Shown piece by piece: positions 12,935 to 61,633 of a stretch of DNA of 64,000 nucleotides (its first letter is position 1; each line of letters starts with the position of its first letter). The stretch covers positions 101,111 through 165,110 of the forward strand of contig DASWCM010000003.1 in the NCBI GenBank assembly GCA_036390115.1, written 5' to 3'. The DNA is from Blattabacteriaceae bacterium (GTDB lineage Bacteria > Bacteroidota > Bacteroidia > Flavobacteriales > Blattabacteriaceae). A program made the position numbers and the translations under genes. The notes beneath the pieces are model-generated. The model had not been told where the DNA came from. It saw only the letters and a program-made list of their open reading frames with translations, and searched no databases.

Positions 12935-13776
12935 AGATGTTTTTGCCCTTAAAATATTAGATTATACCCACTATTGAAGTGGATGGAAGCAGTGTGAATG
13001 AAATAATTGCTCCATAAATAAAGGGTCTCAAAGTCTTAGAGATCAATTAATGATTGATATTGACGTAACAGAAAATAAAAGTAGTCTTGGAGCTAATGCT
13101 ATTCTTTTCATTAGCTGATGCTAAAGCTGCCTCAGCTTATACTGTTACCATGATGAATATAGTTCCTCCTATTTATTTTCAATAATTTCTGATTGTTCCA
13201 GTATCTGCTAATAGCTTTTCGTAAACTGTTAGAATGGGAGTAACTCTTACGTAGTCTCAGTTGTAGATGAAGGTGGATTTTAATCAAAATTTGATAGTAC
13301 TGAAGAAGCATTAGATGCATAATCCATTGAAAAATCAGGATATAAACCTGTTGAAGAAATAATGCTTGCTTTAGATTGCGCTTCTTCCGAATTTTATTTA
13401 AACGTAAAATATGATTATACTCGTTTTGAAGGGGAAAAAGGTTGTTTACGTTCTAGTGAAGAACAAGTTAATTATTTAATTAAGCTTATTGAAAAGTATC
13501 CAATAATCTCTATTGAATATGGAATGGATCAAAACGATTGGGAAACTTTTAACTGAAAAAAATAGGAAAAAATGTCCAATTAGTAGGGGATGATCTATTC
13601 GTTACAAATCTTTCTAGATTAAAGGAAGGTAGGGTCATAATTATACGAACGATAATGTCTCATCGTTCTGTGAATATTATACGATATATGATTTATCGGT
13701 AGCTTTTAAAACTGGATCAGCTTCTCTCGCATGGCGAAGTATAATCAATTGATAATAATTGAATAAATGCTAGCTT
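12921..13776 (+). pseudogene. eno: Enolase pseudogene (multiple frameshifts, stops and deletions)
   Basis: Enolase-like peptides appear in collinear order but in different frames, separated by stops. They are MSKIKDVFALKILD (ATG 12921), PTIEVD, NKSSLGANAILFIS then [63 protein letters not shown] (ORF 13362..13556), VQLVGDDLFVTN (13574, another frame), MSHRS, and MAKYNQLIIIE stop (13776). Confidence 0.88.
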
Positions 13777-13870
13777 TTTGGGGCTTTGCTTCATTTCTGA
13801 CAGTAGCTTGCTTGTGTAGCTACAAAAAAAATAAGCAAATTAAAGTAAATGTATTAATTTTTCTAAAATT

Positions 13871-26520: not shown

Positions 26521-27489
26521 ATGAAAGAAGTAACTTTTAGAGAAGCTATCTCGGAAGCTATGAGTGAAGAAATGAGAAGGGATCCAACCGTTTATTTAAT
26601 GGGAGAAGAAGTAGCTGAATACAACGGAGCTTATAAAACTTCTAAAGGAATGCTGGAGGAGTTTGGCTCAGCAAGAGTAATAGATACCCCAATTTCAGAA
26701 CTGGGATTTTCTGGTATCGGAATTGGTTCATCAATGAATGGATGCAGACCAATCATTGAATTTATGACATTTAATTTTTCTTTAATAGCGATTGATCAGA
26801 TTATCAATAATGCTGCTAAGATTTATCAAATGAGTGGGGGGCAGTGGAATATTCCTATAGTTTTTAGAGGTCCCACTGCATCAGCTGGACAATTAGGTGC
26901 CACGCATTCTCAATCTTTTGAAAATTGGTATGCTAACTGCCCTGGATTAAAGGTGATTGTTCCCTCAAATCCTTATGATGCGAAAGGCCTTTTAAAGGCT
27001 GCTATTAGAGATGATGATCCTGTTATTTTTATGGAATCTGAACAAATGTATAGTGACACTATGTTCCTTCCAGATGAAGAATATCTTGTTCCTATTGGTC
27101 TAGCTAGTGTAAAAAAAAAAGGAGATGACGTAACGCTAGTTTCATTTGGAAAAATTTTAAAAGTAGCTTTTAAAGCTATTGAAAAATTATCTGAAGATAA
27201 TGTTGAAGTTGAGTTAATTGATCTCAGAACGGTCCGTCCCTTAGACTATGAAACAATATTATCTTCTGTGAAGAAAACCAATAGACTAGTTATACTTGAA
27301 GAATCATGGCCATTAGCTTCTATTTCTGCTGAAATCTCCTATATTTTGCAACAAAAAGCTAGTCTTTATGCTCCGATAAAAAGGATAACATTACCAGATG
27401 TTCCAGCTATTTATTCATCTGCTTTGATGGAATATTGGTTCCCAGCTCTAGAAGAAGTAGTCTCTACCGTAAAAGAGGTTTTAAAATAA
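26521..27489 (+). CDS. pdhB: Pyruvate (2-oxoacid) dehydrogenase E1 component beta subunit
   Basis: 322 aa. FREAISEAMSEEMRRDPTVYLMGEEVAEYNGAYK.SKG and VIDTPISELGF indicate a transketolase-like E1 beta. Confidence 0.9.
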   Translation: MKEVTFREAISEAMSEEMRRDPTVYLMGEEVAEYNGAYKTSKGMLEEFGSARVIDTPISELGFSGIGIGSSMNGCRPIIEFMTFNFSLIAIDQIINNAAKIYQMSGGQWNIPIVFRGPTASAGQLGATHSQSFENWYANCPGLKVIVPSNPYDAKGLLKAAIRDDDPVIFMESEQMYSDTMFLPDEEYLVPIGLASVKKKGDDVTLVSFGKILKVAFKAIEKLSEDNVEVELIDLRTVRPLDYETILSSVKKTNRLVILEESWPLASISAEISYILQQKASLYAPIKRITLPDVPAIYSSALMEYWFPALEEVVSTVKEVLK

Positions 27490-27496
27490 CAAACTT

Positions 27497-27870
27497 TTGA
27501 AGATATTTTTTTATTATGTTTCCTTTCTTCTCTTTTTTTTTAGAGCTTCTCCGCCTAAATCAAATAATTTTGATCCATCTAAGGGCATCTTAGATAATAT
27601 AAAAGATTCTCATGAATGGCATCTTTTTGTAAAAGAAAAGATAATTTATCTTCCGATAATTTTATGGTATAGAGGGTTTCGTATTTTTCTTTCGTCATGA
27701 TTTAATCATGGAAATAAATTCATAGAAGGCAATCATTGCTACTACAGATTCTTTAAAGAAAGAATCTACAAAACTAATTATTACAGCTGCTTAGTTTTCT
27801 ATTTACCCAAAACCCACATTGAAATATTGGCAATCTTTTATTTTTACAGCTTTATCTTCTTTGTGGAATG
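27497..27870 (+). pseudogene. atpB: ATP synthase F0 subunit a remnant (in-frame stop, then most of the gene deleted)
   Basis: ORF 27497..27700 has a TTG start and reads ..FDPSKGILDNIKDSHEWHLF..IIYLPIILWYRGFRIFLSS. A TGA at 27698 is followed in the same frame by FNHGNKFIEGNHCYYRFFKERIYKT. From memory this matches the conserved N-terminal segment of Bacteroidota AtpB (..DSH....LPLPVILW..GL..F.SSKF.HG....GNH....IYKT). The C-terminal roughly 250 aa are absent. Boundaries are approximate. Confidence 0.6.
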
Positions 27871-27879
27871 ACTCTTGTG

Positions 27880-27995
27880 GAACATCATCAGCTAGAAGAG
27901 TATAATCGCTACAGAAGCTTCTGTCAGGCATTTATGATCTCTTAGATATGTTCTTAAATAGCAATTTATGTTATGGATTTGTTCCGTTGGTTTAA
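27880..27995 (+). pseudogene. atpE: Possible ATP synthase F0 subunit c remnant
   Basis: There are short frame-broken matches to the c-subunit core. IIATEAS resembles AIARQPEAS. SG.. and FMIS.. in neighbouring frames resemble MIIAAAL. The fragment lies between the atpB and atpF remnants as in atpBEFH. Evidence is weak. Confidence 0.35.
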
Positions 27996-28340
27996 TTATT
28001 TGGCAAAAAATTATTTTTATTATTTTATTAGTTTTACTAAGGAGATTTGCTTGGAGTATCTTATAGAAATTATTGAAAAACGCGAAAAAAAATATTCTCT
28101 GACTTAGAGAGACAAGCTCTTAAAAAAGAGAAAATTTTAAGAGAAGCTTGCATAGAACGAGATTTTCTTTTAAAAGAGGCTCTCTCCATAAAAGATAGAG
28201 TTAGAGGAAAAATCCCAAATTGAAAGGATGCTTGAACAAGCTATATAGGTTATAAAAACCGATAAATCTGTTGCTAGAGTTTTCGTCCTTGAAAAAGTTT
28301 GTTGTGGAGAGTTGTGTAGAAGAAGATTATGTCTGTGTGT
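27996..28340 (+). pseudogene. atpF: ATP synthase F0 subunit b remnant (frameshifted, with stops)
   Basis: LIIWQKIIFIILLVLLRRFAWSIL then a stop (frame of tgg at 28001). A different frame, starting at 28083, reads RKKIFSDLERQALKKEKILREACIERDFLLKEALSIKDRV. This matches the Bacteroidota AtpF pattern FWQ..IF..LL.LL.KFAWKPIL...RE..I...L..A......L.EA..ERD.ILKEA..IK. Confidence 0.6.
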
Positions 28341-28379
28341 AGGTCCTTCACGATAAGCCTGTCAAAGAGCAATCGATAT

Positions 28380-28893
28380 TATAGTCCTAATAGTATGATA
28401 GGAGGAGATACAGCCTAGCAATTGACATTATCCTTAATAAAAAAAGACTTTATGAAAGTGGTAATCCCATATATTGTACATAAGTCAAAAAGGTACTGGT
28501 AAAAACTCTTATAGATCATGGGGGGGATGGACAAATTTTTCTTGAGTCAGATTTGTTCAATGCTGTACAGCAATTAATGAAGGAACTAGGGAGAAGCTCA
28601 GATTGCATCGATGAAAAAACTATCTGGAACATTTAAATTGGATGAGGGATTTTCCAAATTTAGTTCTGATTTAGATACCACAACTTTATCAATAATTCAT
28701 AAAGGTCGTTGGAATGTATAAATCAAGCAATTAATTCACTAGATAAAATATCTGATCAAATAGCACTTGTATATGCGAGTACAAAAAATCATTATTCGTT
28801 GTATTTTCCTATAATAAAGGATTATTTGGAACTTTTAACACTTCCATCTTCTGGATGAAGGAAAATTTTTTAAAGACAAAATCTTCCAAATAA
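28380..28893 (+). pseudogene. atpH: Possible ATP synthase delta subunit remnant
   Basis: Collinear weak matches: RRRYSLAIDIIL resembles the N-terminal [40 protein letters not shown] resembles the central L..LL.EN.R...L..I...F segment. The C-terminal FNTSIFWMKENFLKTKSSK stop resembles Y(D/N)ASV...L..LK..L. All are broken by stops. Confidence 0.3.
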
Positions 28894-29358
28894 ATTCATA
28901 TAATGATATAGGAAAAAAAGGAATATATTTTAAAAAAAAATATAAAATATTAAACGAAAATAAAATTTAGAAAATATCTCTTCTGTAAAAGAAACTTACG
29001 CAAAAGTTTTTTAACATGGATTTTTTATCAATATATTTAGTGTATAATACACCAAAAAGTCTGAAATATCACATTATAAAGCAATGCTACTTTATCATCT
29101 GGAGCAGATATTAACTTTCTTTTTGAACCTTCAAAAGAAAGAATTTTTGATTATATTATATCAATGATATTAAGAATAAATTTTATCAAAGCTTTTTTGG
29201 AATCAACTGTATAGGAAAATACAGCTTGAATGACATCCATGAATATAGCAACTGAAAATGCCTCATATTTAAAATATGAGCTAACATTGAGATATAACAA
29301 AATAAGACAAGAAGCTATTACCAAAGATATTTTATAACTTATTGGAGTAACAAAAAAA

Positions 29359-30318
29359 ATGATGAGAGTTCTAACTGGGATCCAAAGTACTGGAACCCCA
29401 CATATCGGTAATTTACTTGGAGCTATTTTACCAACCATTAAAATGACCAAGATTTATTCAAATCCTTCTTTTATACTGATCGCTGATTTACACAGTTTAA
29501 CGAATATTAAAGATTCAGAAATTATAAAAGAGAATACTTATCGAGTTTTATCAGCTTTTTTAGCCTTTGGTTTACCCTTGGATAAAGTAGTCTGTTACAA
29601 ACAATCTGATGTGCCAGAGGTAACTGAGTTAGCTTGGTATTTGAGTTGTTTTTTTTCTTATAAACGTCTGACTTTATCTCATTCTTTTAAAGAAAAGTAT
29701 AACCAAGATATAAGCGTAGGACTTTTCTCTTATCCCCTATTGATGGCTTCTGACATTTTACTTTTTAATGCTAAAATAGTTACCGTAGGAAAAGATCAGT
29801 TGCAACATTTAGAGATTACTCGTAATATCGCTGATCGTTTCAATAGAAAAATGGGAAAAATTTTTGTCCTACCTGAGGCTAAGATACAAGAAGAAGCGAA
29901 ATCTGTGCCTGGTACAGATGGATATAAAATGAGTAAATCCCTAGGTAATGCTATTGATATCTTTTGCTCTAAAGAGGATTTAAAAAATCAGATTATGAGT
30001 ATACAAACTGATAGTAAATCTTTAAAAGATCCTAAGGATCCTGATGTTGACAGGATTTTTTCTATTTATAAATTGCTCGCTTCTAAAGAAGAAGTGGAGG
30101 AAATGAGAGAACGTTATTTAAATGGTGGGTATGGATATAGTCAAGCAAAGAAAGTCTTGTATGAACTTATTTTAAATAGATTTTCTTTTGAACGAAAAAA
30201 GTTTCATATTTTTCTAAAAAAAATAAATTATCTAGATGATATTCTCCACTTTGGAGCTAAAAAAGCTAGAAAAATTGCCATTAATACGATATGCAAAGTT
30301 CGTAAAGCTTTACTTTAG
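29359..30318 (+). CDS. trpS: Tryptophanyl-tRNA synthetase
   Basis: 319 aa. GIQSTGTPHIGNLLG (HIGH) and KMSKS (YKMSKSLGN) class I motifs. Confidence 0.95.
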   Translation: MMRVLTGIQSTGTPHIGNLLGAILPTIKMTKIYSNPSFILIADLHSLTNIKDSEIIKENTYRVLSAFLAFGLPLDKVVCYKQSDVPEVTELAWYLSCFFSYKRLTLSHSFKEKYNQDISVGLFSYPLLMASDILLFNAKIVTVGKDQLQHLEITRNIADRFNRKMGKIFVLPEAKIQEEAKSVPGTDGYKMSKSLGNAIDIFCSKEDLKNQIMSIQTDSKSLKDPKDPDVDRIFSIYKLLASKEEVEEMRERYLNGGYGYSQAKKVLYELILNRFSFERKKFHIFLKKINYLDDILHFGAKKARKIAINTICKVRKALL

Positions 30319-30331
30319 TTTATTAAAGAAC

Positions 30332-30830
30332 ATGGATAGAGAAAGAATGATAAAATTTTTAAAGGAAATTTATATATCCCGGGTAGTAGATTAATATTGT
30401 AGATAATCAATCTCTTATTGATATTTTTTTTTAGGAGATTGTGCTTGCTTAGAAAGCGCAAAAAAAAAACTTTAATATGATATTCCTAAAGCAAGGAACA
30501 CAAAAATAAAAATTAATACAGTAATTACTCATCAGAGTCTGGAGTAAAAGTATATAATACTTCTGAGTAAATATTCCATAACTTATCTAAAATGGGTGTG
30601 ACGTTTATAGGCCTTCTATTCCTATAATGTTTAATTAGGAAAATGTTTTCTATCTTTAGATAAGGAAAAGAAAAAATAAAACCTTATGAAAATTATGGAG
30701 TAAAGATGTTATCTTTAGGTTTTTTGCTCATATTAGCAGTTTTATGACGTGCTATTAAAGCATTGAAAGAGATTCTTATTGGGGTTTTAGTTGTATGGGG
30801 GCTAAAGGAGCTATACTTGGAATAGGATAA
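30332..30830 (+). pseudogene. pdhA: Possible pyruvate dehydrogenase E1 alpha remnant (tentative)
   Basis: Stop-riddled fragments lie at roughly the spacing expected for E1 alpha. MDRERMIKFLKEIYISRVVD (30332) resembles Y..M...R.FE. VITHQSLE (30521) resembles ITAYR.H. GKCFLSLDKEKKK (30638) resembles GGSMH.F.KE. YENYGVKMLSLGFLLILA (30685, shifted frame) resembles YGG.GIVG.Q..LG.G.AFA. ALKEILIGVLVVWGL resembles L.E..N.A.LW.LP. Identities are low. Confidence 0.35.
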
Positions 30831-31056
30831 AATATGGCTTTTTTAAAAATAAAAGAAAAAATATTTTACATTTGGAAAAAATGGGCTAAAAAACTTTCTA
30901 TTGAACTTGTCTCTCTTCATGCCAATAAAGTTTAAAAAAAAATTTTTAAAAATATTTTACTAGGCTAAAAAGCAATAAATTTATTTTTTTCTTTCTAAAA
31001 AGAGATCTTTTTGCAACCTTTCACACAATTCGTACATTTGAGTAAATGAAAGAAAA

Positions 31057-49738: not shown

Positions 49739-50533
49739 ATGAGTATTTATGGAAATTTATTCTCATCTGCAAAAAATCTTTTAAATAGAGGCCTATAAAA
49801 CTAGGATTCTTTTTTTTTTCTAATTTGGAAAAAATTATAATAGGAAAATCTAAGATAGAGGAAAAATTCCTAGAGTAGGTGTTGATTTATTCTGATGTTG
49901 GAGTAAAGACTAGTCTAAAAATCATTTAAAATATAAAAAATATCGCAGAAAAAGATAAATACTTGAACCTTGAAGACATTCAAGGTCTTCCTTAAGGAAG
50001 AAGTCTATTTGCTTTTGTAAGAAAAAGAAATTCCTAGCAAAGGGTCATTATGATTGTTGGGAGTGTTCAATTACTGGAAAATTAGCCTGGAAGTTTAAAA
50101 AATCCAGGCTTAAGATTTGTCAGATCGTGCAGAAGTTCCTTTAATAAAACATAATATGGGATCTGATCCAGCTTCAGTAGCTTTTGATACGCTCAGCTAA
50201 ATATAGAAAGGATGATCTAGTTTTAATAAATACGGCAGTACGGTTGCATAATAAAGTAAATCTTCTGAAAGAGCTTTCTAAAATTAAACGAGTTATGCAA
50301 AAATTGATTCCTAAAGCTCCACAGTAGGTAATGCTAGTCTTAGATGGAACTATCGGACAGAATTCTTTTGAACAAGTGTACTGGAGTTTATTCTTTAGCA
50401 ATCACAAAACTAGATGGCTCTGCTAAGGGAGGAATTTTTGATTAAGATACCGATAAAGTATCTTGGAATAGGAGAGGGACAACCTTTCGATAGAGATTTG
50501 TTTATTGATTCACTTTTCAATAAAGAATATTAG
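49739..50533 (+). pseudogene. ftsY: SRP receptor FtsY pseudogene
   Basis: Collinear FtsY peptides appear in several frames, broken by many stops. They are MSIYGNLFSSAKNLLNRGL stop, GKSKIEEKFLE, SDVGVKTSLKII stop, GSDPASVAFDTLS stop, ITKLDGSAKGGIFD stop, and IKIPIKYLGIGEGQPFDRDLFIDSLFNKEY stop. The GxxGxGKT and DTAGR regions are unrecognisable. Confidence 0.88.
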
Positions 50534-56614: not shown

Positions 56615-58515
56615 TTAAATATTTTTAAAAAAATTAATTTCTTTTCTTAGAAAGTCTAGAAAGAGACTTATCGAAATAGATCCCAAATTTCCTATTATAT
56701 GTCGGCGTATAGAGATGATACCTTTTTCTTGTTCAAAATCTCCAATTACTCCTAAAATAGGTATTTTATAGTTCTCTGCGTCTCTAATTTTTTTTGATAT
56801 ATTTTCATTTCTCTCATCCAAGAGAGCCCTAACACCATAAATATATAGCAAATCTAAAACTTTTTTTGCAAATTTAAGATTTTTTTTTTTATTGTTAGCA
56901 ACATAACTTGGGTTGGTGCAAGCCAAAGTGGTAGATTTCCTACCGTGTGTTCCAAAAGAATAGCTGAAAATCTCTCCAAAGAACCAAAATGTGCACGATG
57001 AATTATAACTGGTCGATGAAACTTATTATCTATTCCTTTATAAGATAAATCAAAACATTCAGGTAGATTGTAGTCCACTTGGATGGTACCTAATTGCCAA
57101 TTTCTACCTAGAGAATCTTTAACCATAAAATCTAGTTTAGGTCCATAGAAAGCTGCTTCTCCATATGCTAAAATAGTTTTTAAGTTTTTCATTCTTGAAG
57201 AGTGAATAATAGCTTCTTCTGATTTTTTCCAATTTTCTTCAGAACCTATATAAGAATTTCTCTTGTCTCTTAGAGATATTTTTGCCGTATATTCTTTAAA
57301 TCCAAAGACCCTAAATACATAAAAGATCATATCAATCACTTTTTGAATTTCAACTGACAACTGATTTTGTGTGCAAAATATGTGTGCATCATCTTGAGTA
57401 AAGGATCTAGTACGAGAAATCCCATGTAACTCTCCGCTTTTTTCATAACGATATACCGTACCGAATTCAGCTAAACGTTTTGGCAAATCTCTGTATGAGA
57501 ATTTTTTATTTCGATAAATTTCACAGTGATGTGGACAATTCATTGGCCTTAAAAGAAATTCCTCTTCTTTATTAGGAGTCCTTATTGGTTTAAAAGAATT
57601 TTTTCCATACTTTTTCCAGTGCCCTGAAGTTTCATAAAGTATTTTATGCCCAATATGGGGCGTGGTCACCATTTCATACCCAGATTTTTTTTGCAACTTT
57701 ATTAGAAAATTTTCCATAAGTTTAAGTAAGTCAGTACCTTTAGGAAGCCATAATGGCAATCCAAGTCCTACCCGTTCAGAAAAAATAAATAAACCAAGTT
57801 CTTTACCTAATTTCCTATGATCACGCTTTTTAGTTTCCTCCAAAATAAGAAGATACTCTTCTAAATATTCTTTTCTAGGGAAAGAAATACCGTAAATACG
57901 GGTAAGCTGTTCATTTACCTTCCAATAGGATCCTGATGTATTGATAATTTTTACTGATTTTATCAATCCAGTATGCGGAATATGTACGCCCAGGCATAAA
58001 TCTGTGAAATCTCCATAAGTGCAAAAAGTAATAACTTGAAAACTTTCGATTAATTCAATTTTATATTTGTTTCCTTCATAATGTTTTATAGCTTCATTTT
58101 TTGAAAATGTATCACTTTTAAAAGTGTTTGATTTTAGAGCGTTTTCCAGAATTTTTTTCTCAATCTTATGGAAATCTTTTAAATGAGCTTCTCCAAAATC
58201 TATATCATAGTAAAACCCATTATCAATGGGATTACCAATATGTAAATTTGCTTTAGGATAAAAATTTAAAAGAGCTTGAGTTAACAAATGAGCTGAAGAA
58301 TGCCAAAAAGCCTTTTTACCTAGGGCATTATCCCATGTATAAAAAGATAATTCAGAATCTTCGAAGATTTCTATATCAAATTCAACTTGTTGTCCGTTAA
58401 GACTGGCTGATAAAACTCTTTTTGAAAAACTGTGACTAATACCTTTAATTATTTTAGCGGGAGTTATTCCTTTGGAATACTTTCTAACCTTTCCATAAGT
58501 AAAACGAATCATCAT
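56615..58515 (-). CDS. thrS: Threonyl-tRNA synthetase, reading frame interrupted in an A11 tract (ORFs 56854..58515 and 56615..56926)
   Basis: The N-terminal ORF carries the TGS, editing and class II catalytic core (..HRPVIIHRAHFGSLERF..LWLAPTQVMLLTIKKK) and stops 8 codons after the tract. The anticodon-binding domain (NLKFAKKVLDLLYIYGVRALLDERNENISKKIRDAE..KIPILGVIG) continues in another frame. The frames switch at the plus-strand T11 run 56880..56890. Confidence 0.9.
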
Positions 58516-58534
58516 ATTTTTCGAATTATTTTCT

Positions 58535-59280
58535 TTATATACTGAAATTTTTCAAAAGATCATCTACTTCTTCGATAGAATTTCCAGATCCTTTGGAAAT
58601 ACGAATATTGCGATTTTCATTTATGAGTTATGGATTTTTACGTTCTTTTTCCGACATAGAGTATATAATTGATTCGGTCTTTATCCCCTTTTAAGTCAAT
58701 TTAATGAAAAATATTTCCCATACCCATCACATATTTTTAACCTTATGAATTTGACTTAAAAAATCATTAAGATCAAATTTATTTTGATCAATCTTCCTTC
58801 TTATGCTTGTTCTTTACTAAATTACTCATTAACTTTTTACACCATAGAGATTACATCCTCCATTACAAGGAGGCTTTTCGCTATTATAGCAGTATAGAAA
58901 ATATCTAAATACTCTTACAGTTCCAATAAACTTTATTGGCTTTTTATAAATGGAACAAACTGTGAGTATAGCATCATACTCCGTTAAAATACAGTACATC
59001 TTTAAAATTTTTTGCAGTATTAGCAGAATCTTGTCCATTCATAGCATCTACAATAAAAAGGCTTTCGGATGGACGAATCGCTTTATAAATACGCTCCATT
59101 TCATCCATCATTACTTTCAATCTTCCAGCTGGATCAATAATTAGCACGTCATAATTACCTTCTTTAGCAAAAGCGACAGACTATCCAAGAACTTTTATTT
59201 TCTGAATAGCTGCTGGTCTGTTGTCGATAGAAGTGTTTTTTTTCTTTTTTTTCTAACTTCCATTATACTTTATTAAACAA
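58535..59280 (-). pseudogene. ffh: Signal recognition particle protein Ffh pseudogene (5'-truncated, frameshifted)
   Basis: Reverse-strand translation gives several Ffh peptides. KKNTSIDNRPAAIQKIKVLG then a stop. FAKEGNYDVLIIDPAGRLKVMMDEMERIYKAIRPSESLFIVDAMNGQDSANTAKNF, where DTAG reads DPAG. LTEYDA..KKPIKFIGT (ORF 58829..59038). DFLSQI, and RNIRISKGSGNSIEEVDDLLKNFSI then a stop. The frames are broken by stops, and the N-domain and P-loop region are missing. Boundaries are approximate. Confidence 0.85.
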
Positions 59281-59493
59281 CTCTAAGTAATTCTCATCTT
59301 TACAATTAAGAATAAAATATTCAAAAATATCTGTGTTAATACAGAATTTCCAACTTATTTTCCTACCCTAATTTGGTGTACTTAATTTCTTGCCTTAAAT
59401 AAGTAATATTGTAGCATTGATGTAGAGCTTTTCTATTTTTCAGATAAAAATTAGTTTATCAATAACATAAAAGATTCTATGTAGTGTAGGCAT

Positions 59494-60381
59494 TTAAAAT
59501 CTGGGGCTTTTTATTTTTCTGAATATTTCAAGTACTTTTTGTCCAATTTCTGAAGGAGAAACTACTATATGTATTCCGCATTTTATCATTATTTTTATTT
59601 TGGATTTAGCAGTATCTTCTTCTCCCCCAACAATAGCTCCAGCATGTCCCATGATTCTTCCTTTTGGAGCTGTTTGGCCAGCTATGAACCCAATAACAGG
59701 TTTCTTATTACCTATTTCTCTAACCCCTATCGCAGCGTCTTTTTCCATTTTTCCCCCAATTTCCCCTATAATAACAATCACTTCGGTTTCATCATCTTCC
59801 ATAAATAACGAAACAATTTCTTGCATACTGCTACCAATAATAGGATCTCCCCCAACTCCAACAGCTGTTGATATTCCAAGTCCAGATGCCACTATTTGAT
59901 CAGCTGCTTCATAAGTTAGCGTTCCAGATTTTGACACTATCCCAATAGTACCTCTCTCAAAAATAAATCCAGGCATAATTCCTACTTTGGATTCTCCAAC
60001 TGTTATTACACCTGGACAATTTGGTCCAATTAGTCTAGATTTTTTAAGGTATCTTTTCACCTTAATCATATCAGAAATAGGAATCCCTTCCGTAATACAA
60101 ACAATAAGGGAAATATTAGATTCTGCCGCCTCCATAATAGCATCAACTGCAAATGCAGCTGGAACAAAAATAACACTAACATCTGCGTTAGTTTCTCTAA
60201 CAGCTTTCTCCACTGTATCAAATACAGGTATCCCTAGATGTTTTTCTCCCCCTTTTCCTGGAGTCACTCCCCCAACAATAGAACTTCCATATGCAAGCAT
60301 TTGCTCAGAATGAAAGCTTCCTTCTTTTCCCGTGAATCCTTGTATAATAATTCTAGAATTTTTATTAACTAGTATGCTCAT
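59494..60381 (-). CDS. sucD: Succinyl-CoA synthetase alpha subunit
   Basis: 295 aa. IIQGFTGKEGSFH, LIGPNCPGVI, SKSGTLTYEA and MGHAGAIV (catalytic His). Confidence 0.95.
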   Translation of the reverse strand: MSILVNKNSRIIIQGFTGKEGSFHSEQMLAYGSSIVGGVTPGKGGEKHLGIPVFDTVEKAVRETNADVSVIFVPAAFAVDAIMEAAESNISLIVCITEGIPISDMIKVKRYLKKSRLIGPNCPGVITVGESKVGIMPGFIFERGTIGIVSKSGTLTYEAADQIVASGLGISTAVGVGGDPIIGSSMQEIVSLFMEDDETEVIVIIGEIGGKMEKDAAIGVREIGNKKPVIGFIAGQTAPKGRIMGHAGAIVGGEEDTAKSKIKIMIKCGIHIVVSPSEIGQKVLEIFRKIKSPRF

Positions 60382-60796: not shown

Positions 60797-61633
60797 ATGT
60801 TTTGGAATTTTTTTCTAATTTGGAAAAAACTCTTAAGTTGGAGAGTTATAGGATACTTGTTCGAAAGTTTATCCATTTTACTTGGAGCTTTTCTAAAAAT
60901 TTTAACGTTTAATAACAAATTTGATAAAACAAAATCCTCTGTTTTAAGGAATTACAACCTACTATTTTTCCTATCAATAATTTTCATATTCCCCCCTTTG
61001 AAAAATTTTGGGTATAAACTCCTAACTGTATCTGCAATTTTGATATTAGTATATCAAAAGTTTTTTATTGACTTTTCTAGTAGCATTTCTCTTTTAATAT
61101 CTCAACCTTTTCGGTTTGGGGATTACTTTGAAACATCAAAAGGTTTTTCTGGATATGTTCAGGAAATAACATTAAGACACACAGTTATAAGAACTGTAAA
61201 TAATAATAAAATTGTTTTTCCTGTTAGAACTCTAAACGAAGAGTTTATTATAAATAATAATATTGGAGACATAATAGTTAGAAAAAATATAAATATTAAA
61301 ATTTATTATAGCTTTAAGCTAAATTTGGCTATAAAGATTATCAAAGAAGAAGTAGAAAAACATCCTTTTTGTATTGACGGAAGAACATACGAAGAAAAAA
61401 AAAATTATCTCCCTTTAGTTCTTGTTAAAATAACAAGTTTTAATGATTTTTCTCTAAATCTTAGAACCTTTGTATGGGCAGAAGATAATAGTAAAGGAAT
61501 TCAACTTGAATGGGATTGCCTTAATAAAATAATAAATAGATTTGAAAAAGAAGAAGTTTTCCTTTCTCTCCCAAAAATAATTATATTAAAAAATTTTTCA
61601 TACAAAGGCTTCTGTTTTATAGAAAATGTTTAA
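60797..61633 (+). CDS. Mechanosensitive ion channel family protein (MscS-like)
   Basis: 278 aa. N-terminal TM helices, then ISQPFRFGDYFETSKGFSGYVQEITLRHTVIRTVNNNKIVFPVRTLNEEFIINN, the MscS beta-domain signature. The start codon is uncertain. Confidence 0.8.
   Translation: MFWNFFLIWKKLLSWRVIGYLFESLSILLGAFLKILTFNNKFDKTKSSVLRNYNLLFFLSIIFIFPPLKNFGYKLLTVSAILILVYQKFFIDFSSSISLLISQPFRFGDYFETSKGFSGYVQEITLRHTVIRTVNNNKIVFPVRTLNEEFIINNNIGDIIVRKNINIKIYYSFKLNLAIKIIKEEVEKHPFCIDGRTYEEKKNYLPLVLVKITSFNDFSLNLRTFVWAEDNSKGIQLEWDCLNKIINRFEKEEVFLSLPKIIILKNFSYKGFCFIENV

Follow-up and report, generated by a model that had tools for sequence, protein, structure and literature searches.

Probable relic of an ATP synthase operon between pdhB and trpS in a lineage of tiny-genome flavobacterial symbionts

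The loss of the F1Fo ATP synthase, which marks the point at which a symbiont comes to rely on its host or on a partner for energy, has already been documented in flavobacterial symbionts of scale insects. In 'Candidatus Walczuchella monophlebidarum', which inhabits the giant scale Llaveia axin axin, atpA, atpB, and atpG were described as pseudogenes and atpF as apparently conserved, and atpC, atpD, atpE, and atpH were reported to be absent (PMC3971599). ATP synthase was furthermore tabulated as absent in Uzinura, which also lacks cytochrome c, cbb3 oxidase, and NADH dehydrogenase, and as present in Sulcia and Blattabacterium (PMC3971599). In this study, an independent and parallel case was analyzed in a 64-kb stretch of DNA from a Blattabacteriaceae bacterium (hereafter the window, to which all coordinates refer). 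The interval between pdhB and trpS (27490..29358) is interpreted as the non-functional relic of an atpB-atpE-atpF-atpH-atpA-atpG operon, a reading to which we assign a probability of about 0.93. At this locus, the loss lies on a terminal branch and was caught in mid-erosion, five close relatives having kept the operon intact in the same place; therefore, the deletions, the repeat junctions, and the shift to neutrality can be read directly.

The relatives used for comparison represent five lineages (L082/83/84, L085, L086/87, L088/89, and L090) and were found by exact-protein look-ups. The cluster formed by PdhB at 90% identity holds several distinct lineages, which are 91–97% identical, and the PdhB of the window is 94–97% identical to that of the five operon-bearing relatives. 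In all five, an intact atpB-atpE-atpF-atpH-atpA-atpG operon with complete Pfam architectures lies directly between pdhB and trpS, and no further gene occurs in the interval. Here, pdhB abuts atpB, and the stop codon of atpG overlaps the start of trpS. The interval measures 4657 bp in L082 and L085, compared to 1869 bp in the window. All AtpA open reading frames (ORFs) of the relatives are free of stops, and atpA of L082 and L085 is identical at 96%, 98%, and 87% of the first, second, and third codon positions, respectively; the operons of the relatives are under purifying selection, as these data show. The comparison of the pdhB–trpS synteny in relatives, which a first-pass annotation of the window had proposed as a check on its prediction of an ATP synthase operon ghost, thus revealed the intact operon at the same spot in five lineages, and it is this perfect synteny that establishes the identity of the relic.

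In the window, the longest ORF of the spacer comprises only 67 amino acids (aa). The NCBI accessions of the neighboring PdhB and TrpS proteins are consecutive (HEX9232590.1 and HEX9232591.1, both labeled 'MAG TPA: Blattabacteriaceae bacterium'), and therefore no protein is annotated between the two genes. Both proteins were also matched exactly on JGI soil-metagenome contigs. The annotation can be corrected at this point, since the gap holds recognizable remains of atpA and atpG. Pfam profiles run on stop-masked frames of the plus strand matched the gamma subunit (PF00231, E = 1.1e-22, approximately 28777-29347, profile positions 70-280), subunit b (PF00430, E = 0.0017, approximately 27995-28148), and the alpha/beta C-terminal domain (PF00306, E = 0.0012, approximately 28599-28719), and no match in the gap was obtained for PF00119, the core of subunit a.

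Protein-level comparisons by tblastn, with the ATP synthase subunits of L082 as queries, yielded collinear matches on the plus strand. AtpB was recovered over aa 3-89 (E = 3e-45) and, in two frames, over aa 290-316; AtpF over aa 7-120 across three frames (E = 4e-22); AtpA over aa 32-53, 179-223 (E = 7e-7), and 364-468 (best E = 9e-17 for aa 393-442); and AtpG over aa 67-266 (E = 2.5e-54, window positions 28783-29361). For AtpE and AtpH, nothing above noise was found in the pdhB–trpS gap. At the nucleotide level, the blastn comparisons with the five relatives all resolved the relic into seven collinear blocks, 79–93% identical, with the same order and identical breakpoints throughout. Orthologous position and collinear homology, as expected for a pseudogene relic, are thus shared with five relatives over seven blocks with common breakpoints. 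Scans of the relic for tRNAs, Rfam families, terminator-like sites, and meaningful repeats returned none.

The anatomy of the relic is summarized in Table 1. Retention differs considerably between the genes, amounting to 38% for atpB, 10% for atpE, 62% for atpF, 0% for atpH, 24% for atpA, and 71% for atpG, or approximately 36% for the operon as a whole; atpG is the best-preserved piece. The 5' block of atpB (309 nt) is free of indels, and its homology continues past the nonsense codon up to 27805. The following blastn block (27939-28269, apart from the short atpB 3' end) spans the last 23 nt of atpE together with atpF codons 1-118. The atpF remnant carries three frameshifting and five in-frame small deletions as well as a single nonsense codon (TAG at 28246), and it lacks the 3' third of the gene. 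The three atpA fragments add up to 373 of 1584 nt. The atpG remnant has lost its 5' 209 nt and extends on the right up to the beginning of trpS.

These results bear out the central proposal of the first-pass annotation, namely that the pdhB–trpS gap is not random spacer and holds the ghost of an ATP synthase operon in canonical order: Pfam, tblastn, and synteny agree. The AtpB N-terminus stopped by an in-frame TGA at 27698 and the frameshifted AtpF, seen here as a three-frame tblastn match with three frameshifting deletions, were likewise recognized correctly. Other details had to be revised. A possible c-subunit fragment is without an AtpE match by tblastn, the alignment to atpE being limited to the final 23 nt of the gene; the weak AtpH matches were not significant, and the whole of atpH falls within a 798-bp deletion. 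Two peptides near 28970 and 29095 that had been attributed to the AtpA N-terminus actually belong to AtpG (residues approximately 130-145 and 195-210). Moreover, atpA and atpG had been considered essentially all deleted, which does not fit the 24% and 71% that remain, and the end of the relic, formerly placed at 29150, lies approximately 200 bp further downstream, at 29358.

Table 1. Features of the pdhB–trpS interval and its two flanking genes (window coordinates).
Feature	Position	Strand	Evidence
pdhB (pyruvate dehydrogenase E1 beta), intact, upstream anchor	26521..27489	+	322-aa ORF; exact match to NCBI HEX9232590.1; 95-97% identity to relatives
atpB (subunit a) 5' remnant, codons 1-103 (309 nt), nonsense TGA at 27698-27700 (codon 68)	27497..27805	+	blastn, 91.6-92.1% to L085 9374-9681 and L082 10977-11291; tblastn
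25 nt of unalignable filler replacing 603 bp of the atpB interior (PF00119 core)	27806..27830	.	between-block accounting against L085
atpB 3' end, last 77 nt minus a frameshifting 5-bp deletion (72 nt left)	27831..27902	+	blastn, 91-92% to L085 10285-10361; tblastn
atpE (subunit c) site: 36 nt of filler and last 23 nt of the 228-bp gene (27939-27961)	27903..27961	+	blastn blocks
atpF (subunit b) remnant, codons 1 to ~118 of 163	27968..28269	+	PF00430; tblastn
atpA fragment 1, codons 39-53	28270..28314	+	blastn, 91-93%
atpA fragment 2, codons ~179-203 (just after the P-loop region), nonsense TAA at 28481	28414..28485	+	blastn, 86-89%; tblastn
atpA fragment 3, codons ~364-466 (end of nucleotide-binding domain, start of C-terminal domain), five small deletions	28526..28781	+	PF00306; tblastn
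atpG (gamma) remnant, codons ~70-268, six nonsense codons, two frameshifting deletions	28782..29358	+	PF00231; tblastn
trpS, intact, downstream anchor	29359..30318	+	319-aa ORF; exact match to NCBI HEX9232591.1

Accounting for the sequence between the blocks showed that segments of 603, 205, 798, 377, 481, and 403 bp in L085 correspond to 25, 36, 0, 99, 40, and 0 bp in the window, i.e., to six large deletions of approximately 170–800 bp net each. Within the blocks, 18 small indels were counted, all of them deletions of 1–24 bp, nine of which shift the frame. Altogether, 24 out of 24 length changes are deletions, and no insertion was observed. Nine nonsense codons interrupt the projected ancestral frames, six of them in atpG. 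The 798-bp deletion removed the 3' end of atpF, all of atpH, and the 5' end of atpA; its junction, at the left edge of the first atpA fragment, falls on the 7-nt direct repeat GTTGCTA (28270-28276), of which L085 and L082 carry one copy on either side of the deleted segment and the window a single copy. Likewise, the junction of the 403-bp deletion at the left edge of the atpG remnant lies on a 9-nt repeat, CAAAAAATC (28782-28790), again with a copy at either end in the relatives and a single one in the window. Such junctions point to slipped-strand or illegitimate recombination as the probable cause. Deletional bias is the general model for pseudogene erosion in reduced bacterial genomes. The locus agrees with this model in the exclusive occurrence of deletions among its length changes and in its clean junctions at direct repeats of 7–9 nt, and no difference from it was seen.

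To evaluate selection, lineage-specific changes were counted only at sites invariant among four relatives. In pdhB and trpS, window-specific substitutions amount to 1.0%, 0.6%, and 3.7% at codon positions 1, 2, and 3, respectively, the signature of purifying selection. The corresponding values for the atp remnants are 5.3%, 4.2%, and 4.1%, so that purifying selection has been lost, as expected for a pseudogene. Since the substitutions are flat over the codon positions and reach or exceed the third-position rate of the neighboring genes, they indicate that the remnant has evolved neutrally for essentially the whole terminal branch.

Taken together, these data show that an intact operon of approximately 4.66 kb filled the interval between pdhB and trpS in the ancestor shared with the sampled relatives. 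Selection on this operon was lost on the branch of the window lineage, after which nonsense mutations, frameshifts, and the six large and 18 small deletions accumulated; two of the large deletions lie at short direct repeats and presumably arose by slipped-strand or illegitimate recombination. Examined for the parts that a functional operon must encode, the locus has lost the proton path of subunit a with the deletion of the 603-bp PF00119 core, and 23 of 228 nt are left of subunit c (PF00137). Of subunits b and delta (PF00430 and PF00213), the former is encoded by a broken atpF and the latter by an atpH with 0% retention. The alpha subunit (PF02874, PF00006, and PF00306) is represented by a weak PF00306 match only, and gamma (PF00231) by a partial match that is obtained only across masked stops. 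With c and delta missing and a, b, alpha, and gamma wrecked, no F1Fo complex would be assembled any longer, whatever the state of atpD and atpC. The lack of an F-type ATPase considered in the first-pass annotation is accordingly upheld by the five subunits a, c, delta, alpha, and gamma being destroyed or absent, irrespective of atpD and atpC.

Three observations weigh against the interpretation as a non-functional relic or against its consequence for the organism. First, the absence of any indel from the 5' 309 nt of atpB might hint at residual constraint; yet this block differs from L085 by 8.4% substitution, like the other blocks. Second, atpD, atpC, and approximately 60% of the genome lie outside the sequence examined; another operon or an ATPase of a different type could be encoded there. 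Third, a six-member AtpA cluster (P0185) contains one or two members that are unaccounted for, four or five being explained by the relatives.

The first of these observations also belongs to the alternative that survives best, although we regard it as unlikely, namely that the remnant is kept for a purpose, either as a transcribed spacer or promoter-bearing leader for trpS or as the source of a small peptide (the 67-aa AtpB N-terminal ORF, 27497..27700). Co-transcription is suggested by the arrangement in the relatives, in which pdhB abuts atpB and atpG overlaps trpS, and for this reason the relic is probably still transcribed ahead of trpS. The ghost furthermore contains no terminator-like site, where 1.4 would be expected, and its first 309 nt are without an indel. 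On the other hand, promoter-like matches are not enriched (20 versus 15.6 ± 3.9), and the 67-aa ORF does not occur as a called product in the protein collection. The even distribution of substitutions over the codon positions, none of which falls below the third-position rate of the neighbors, also speaks against retention of a coding function. A role as a transcribed spacer left no visible constraint on the sequence, and nothing separates a purposeful remnant from one whose decay is merely unfinished. Under the reading as a non-functional relic, transcription of the DNA that is left most likely yields no more than a passive spacer separating pdhB from the essential trpS.

Only a small chance is left for the second and third observations to be explained by a function supplied elsewhere in the genome, i.e., through another operon of the F type or an ATPase of the V/A type, the present locus being a redundant copy in decay. 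Only approximately 83 kb of an estimated 200–250 kb genome were examined, which leaves room for such genes. An intact second operon, named in the first-pass annotation as a finding that would overturn its reading, did not appear in these 83 kb of contiguous sequence (the window and its flanks), which hold no further ATPase gene, nor did the AtpA database search give a protein attributable to the lineage; this part of the claim stands for the sequence covered, and the rest of the genome lies outside the search. In particular, atpD and atpC are absent from the 64-kb window and approximately 19 kb of flanks. The relatives, with contigs of approximately 250 kb, show one operon at this position, with no other ATP-synt_ab genes in flanks of ±8–10 kb, and the AtpA of a relative has no further match in the window. 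When a relative's AtpA was searched against the database, only two clade clusters were returned, both headed by lineages with an intact operon, and no clade AtpA is listed on the contigs of the lineage itself (155,480, 202,365, 208,875, and 219,645 bp). To our knowledge, duplicated operons are not expected in genomes so reduced.

A collapsed or chimeric assembly or indel-prone reads might have shortened the interval of an organism that in fact has an intact operon, but this possibility is considered negligible. The sequence does originate from metagenome assemblies, and homopolymer-rich, AT-rich DNA is prone to errors. However, the full 1869-bp ghost recurs base for base in L081, a contig of another sample (3300012200), and four sources (NCBI, JGI, Logan, and ENA assemblies) contain a 44-aa ORF derived from the atpF remnant, so that the relic is reproduced in independent data. 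The contig of sample 3300012200 differs from the window by indels outside the ghost, and a contig of sample 3300012208 shows no mismatch over the part compared. Nine nonsense substitutions and an even spread over codon positions are not expected from assembly errors, and the genes flanking the ghost on this contig remain intact and subject to purifying selection.

Equally remote is the notion that the genes still function through recoding (TGA read as tryptophan, or programmed frameshifts) or as split subunits. TGA has been reassigned in some tiny-genome symbionts. In the window, the genetic code is standard, with TGA ending 6 of 34 long ORFs and tryptophan encoded by TGG in 94 out of 94 codons; TGA is thus a normal stop here, and the TGA at 27698 stands in place of isoleucine or valine rather than tryptophan. 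Rescue of homopolymer frameshifts by transcriptional slippage was raised as a caveat for Walczuchella (PMC3971599), but at this locus atpE and atpH are physically absent, the deletions have also removed approximately 600 bp from the core of subunit a as well as the N-terminus of atpA and the greater part of its nucleotide-binding domain, and recoding therefore cannot restore function.

If the operon is a non-functional relic, the organism would obtain its ATP from substrate-level phosphorylation, from the host, or from a partner symbiont. The gene gapA lies just outside the window and sucD within it, and therefore some substrate-level steps appear to persist. As stated in the first-pass annotation, sucD (59494..60381) is intact; it forms a 295-aa ORF, and the exact protein was annotated by NCBI as succinate-CoA ligase alpha. 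The wider conclusion is more tentative. We see a slightly better than even chance that the lineage is without any ATP synthase and has given up chemiosmotic ATP synthesis, living on ATP from its host or partner or on minimal substrate-level phosphorylation, while sister lineages only 3–6% diverged in PdhB keep the operon. If this is true, the clade would represent a natural before-and-after pair for the loss of ATP synthase in a symbiont, and whole-genome comparison could show the accompanying changes in the respiratory chain, in transporters, and in compensation by the host.

With respect to taxonomic placement, the G+C content of the window is approximately 31%. Its GroEL shares 96–98% identity with a few metagenomic sequences that lie on contigs of 85–250 kb and form a clade of their own. 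Beyond this clade, identities decrease to 84% for MAGs (metagenome-assembled genomes) of flavobacterial symbionts, to 82–83% for Karelsulcia, Blattabacterium, and Shikimatogenerans, and to 81% for Walczuchella. A placement among the insect endosymbionts of the Blattabacteriaceae agrees with these values, the nearest named relatives by GroEL being flavobacterial insect endosymbionts, with the AT-rich composition, and with the size of the relatives' contigs (approximately 250 kb). Because GroEL identity is 96–98% within the clade and then drops to at most 84%, the window is best assigned to a genus-level clade of tiny-genome flavobacterial symbionts separate from the named symbiont genera.

This clade consists of at least six lineages (loci L082-L090 and L102) with approximately 31% G+C and contigs of up to approximately 250 kb, and its sequences stem from metagenomes of soil and other sources (JGI 3300012200, 3300012208, 3300039643, and 3300027718, and several SRA/ENA runs). 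Some of its NCBI records bear the label 'Candidatus Angelobacter sp.', a name which we take to be that of an unrelated soil bacterium, so that the label looks like a taxonomic mis-assignment. A search of genome contigs with PdhB matched only free-living Flavobacteriia at ≤74% identity, with no clade member among the matches, and a search of metagenome contigs with TrpS, performed as a census of atp status, returned a single clade contig that was already known. 'Candidatus Insignibacter' (0.86 Mb; PMC13099577) does not belong to the clade of the window. An identification as Walczuchella itself, whose published description fits closely, was dismissed because of the GroEL identity of only 81%.

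The resemblance to Walczuchella is nevertheless considerable. Both have tiny flavobacterial symbiont genomes with approximately 31–33% G+C and many pseudogenes, and in both the same genes survive (atpB, atpF, atpA, and atpG) and the same two, atpE and atpH, are missing. In contrast to Walczuchella, atpF of the window is also frameshifted, and the window has close relatives with an intact operon, which date the loss to the terminal branch. The GroEL identity of 81%, as against 96–98% within the clade of the window, places the two in different genera, and the losses of the atp genes are therefore independent and parallel. 'Candidatus Uzinura diaspidicola', the symbiont of armoured scales, is comparable as a Blattabacteriaceae-type genome of approximately 0.26 Mb living without F1Fo ATP synthase (PMC3971599, Table 3), but no atp trace was reported for it, while the relic in the window still measures 1.87 kb. 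Compared with the canonical flavobacterial atpBEFHAG operon (L082, L085, L086, L088, and L090), gene order, strand, and flanks are identical and the blocks are 79–93% identical; unlike this operon, the window has lost approximately 64% of the nucleotides, and each surviving gene fragment bears nonsense or frameshift lesions and evolves neutrally.

Gene decay in the window is not confined to the ATP synthase, since the surrounding 64 kb hold at least four more decayed genes, namely eno, mrp/apbC, ftsY, and ffh. Immediately downstream of trpS and ahead of glnS, a remnant of 738 bp (30319-31056, plus strand) represents an Fe-S carrier ATPase gene of the mrp/apbC type (ParA/PF10609), which was detected by tblastn with the L082 protein in three frames (E = 4e-13 to 1.5e-10). 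The gene is intact in L082, L086, and L088 (323–346 aa) and present as a near-full-length, stop-riddled pseudogene in the closest relative, L085. Between rplQ and aroC, an enolase pseudogene (eno, 12935-13870, plus strand) was identified by Enolase_C (E = 4.5e-32) and Enolase_N (E = 8.8e-6) matches across masked stops and frames, and lower glycolysis is therefore broken in the lineage as well.

The two remaining pseudogenes affect the signal recognition particle (SRP) pathway. Remains of ftsY with fragments of the SRP54_N and SRP54 GTPase domains lie at approximately 49800-50500 (plus strand), after rpmB, rpmG, and a DUF4295 gene, and an ffh pseudogene with SRP54 GTPase and SRP_SPB M domains occupies 58516-59493 (minus strand) between thrS and sucD. 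In the closest relative (L102), both sites are only wrecks, with longest stop-free stretches of 67–78 aa, and the atp operon is intact. Because this relative keeps the atp operon though ffh and ftsY are already pseudogenes, the loss of the SRP pathway came before that of the ATP synthase; the reverse order, in which the SRP pathway was lost following the membrane bioenergetic complexes, was rejected on the same grounds.

The adjacent thrS (56615-58515, minus strand) is split into a 553-aa ORF (56854-58515) and a piece encoding the anticodon-binding domain, which forms an overlapping 103-aa ORF (56615-56926) and was called as a 78-aa gene in L092. ThrS measures 546–553 aa in strains of the window lineage and 548 aa in the L085 lineage, where the gene is also split, and 628–635 aa in other relatives. 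The lesions in mrp, ffh, ftsY, and thrS that the window lineage has in common with the L085 lineage suggest that the two are sisters, in which case the atp loss would fall after their separation. Finally, a gene for an MscS-type mechanosensitive channel is intact in the window (60797-61633, plus strand). The corresponding site of the closest relative (L102, 3147-4379) is a 1.2-kb gap without a called gene and with a longest stop-free stretch of 91 aa. Because the MscS gene is intact in the window but not called in L102, the two sister lineages seem to be losing different genes independently.

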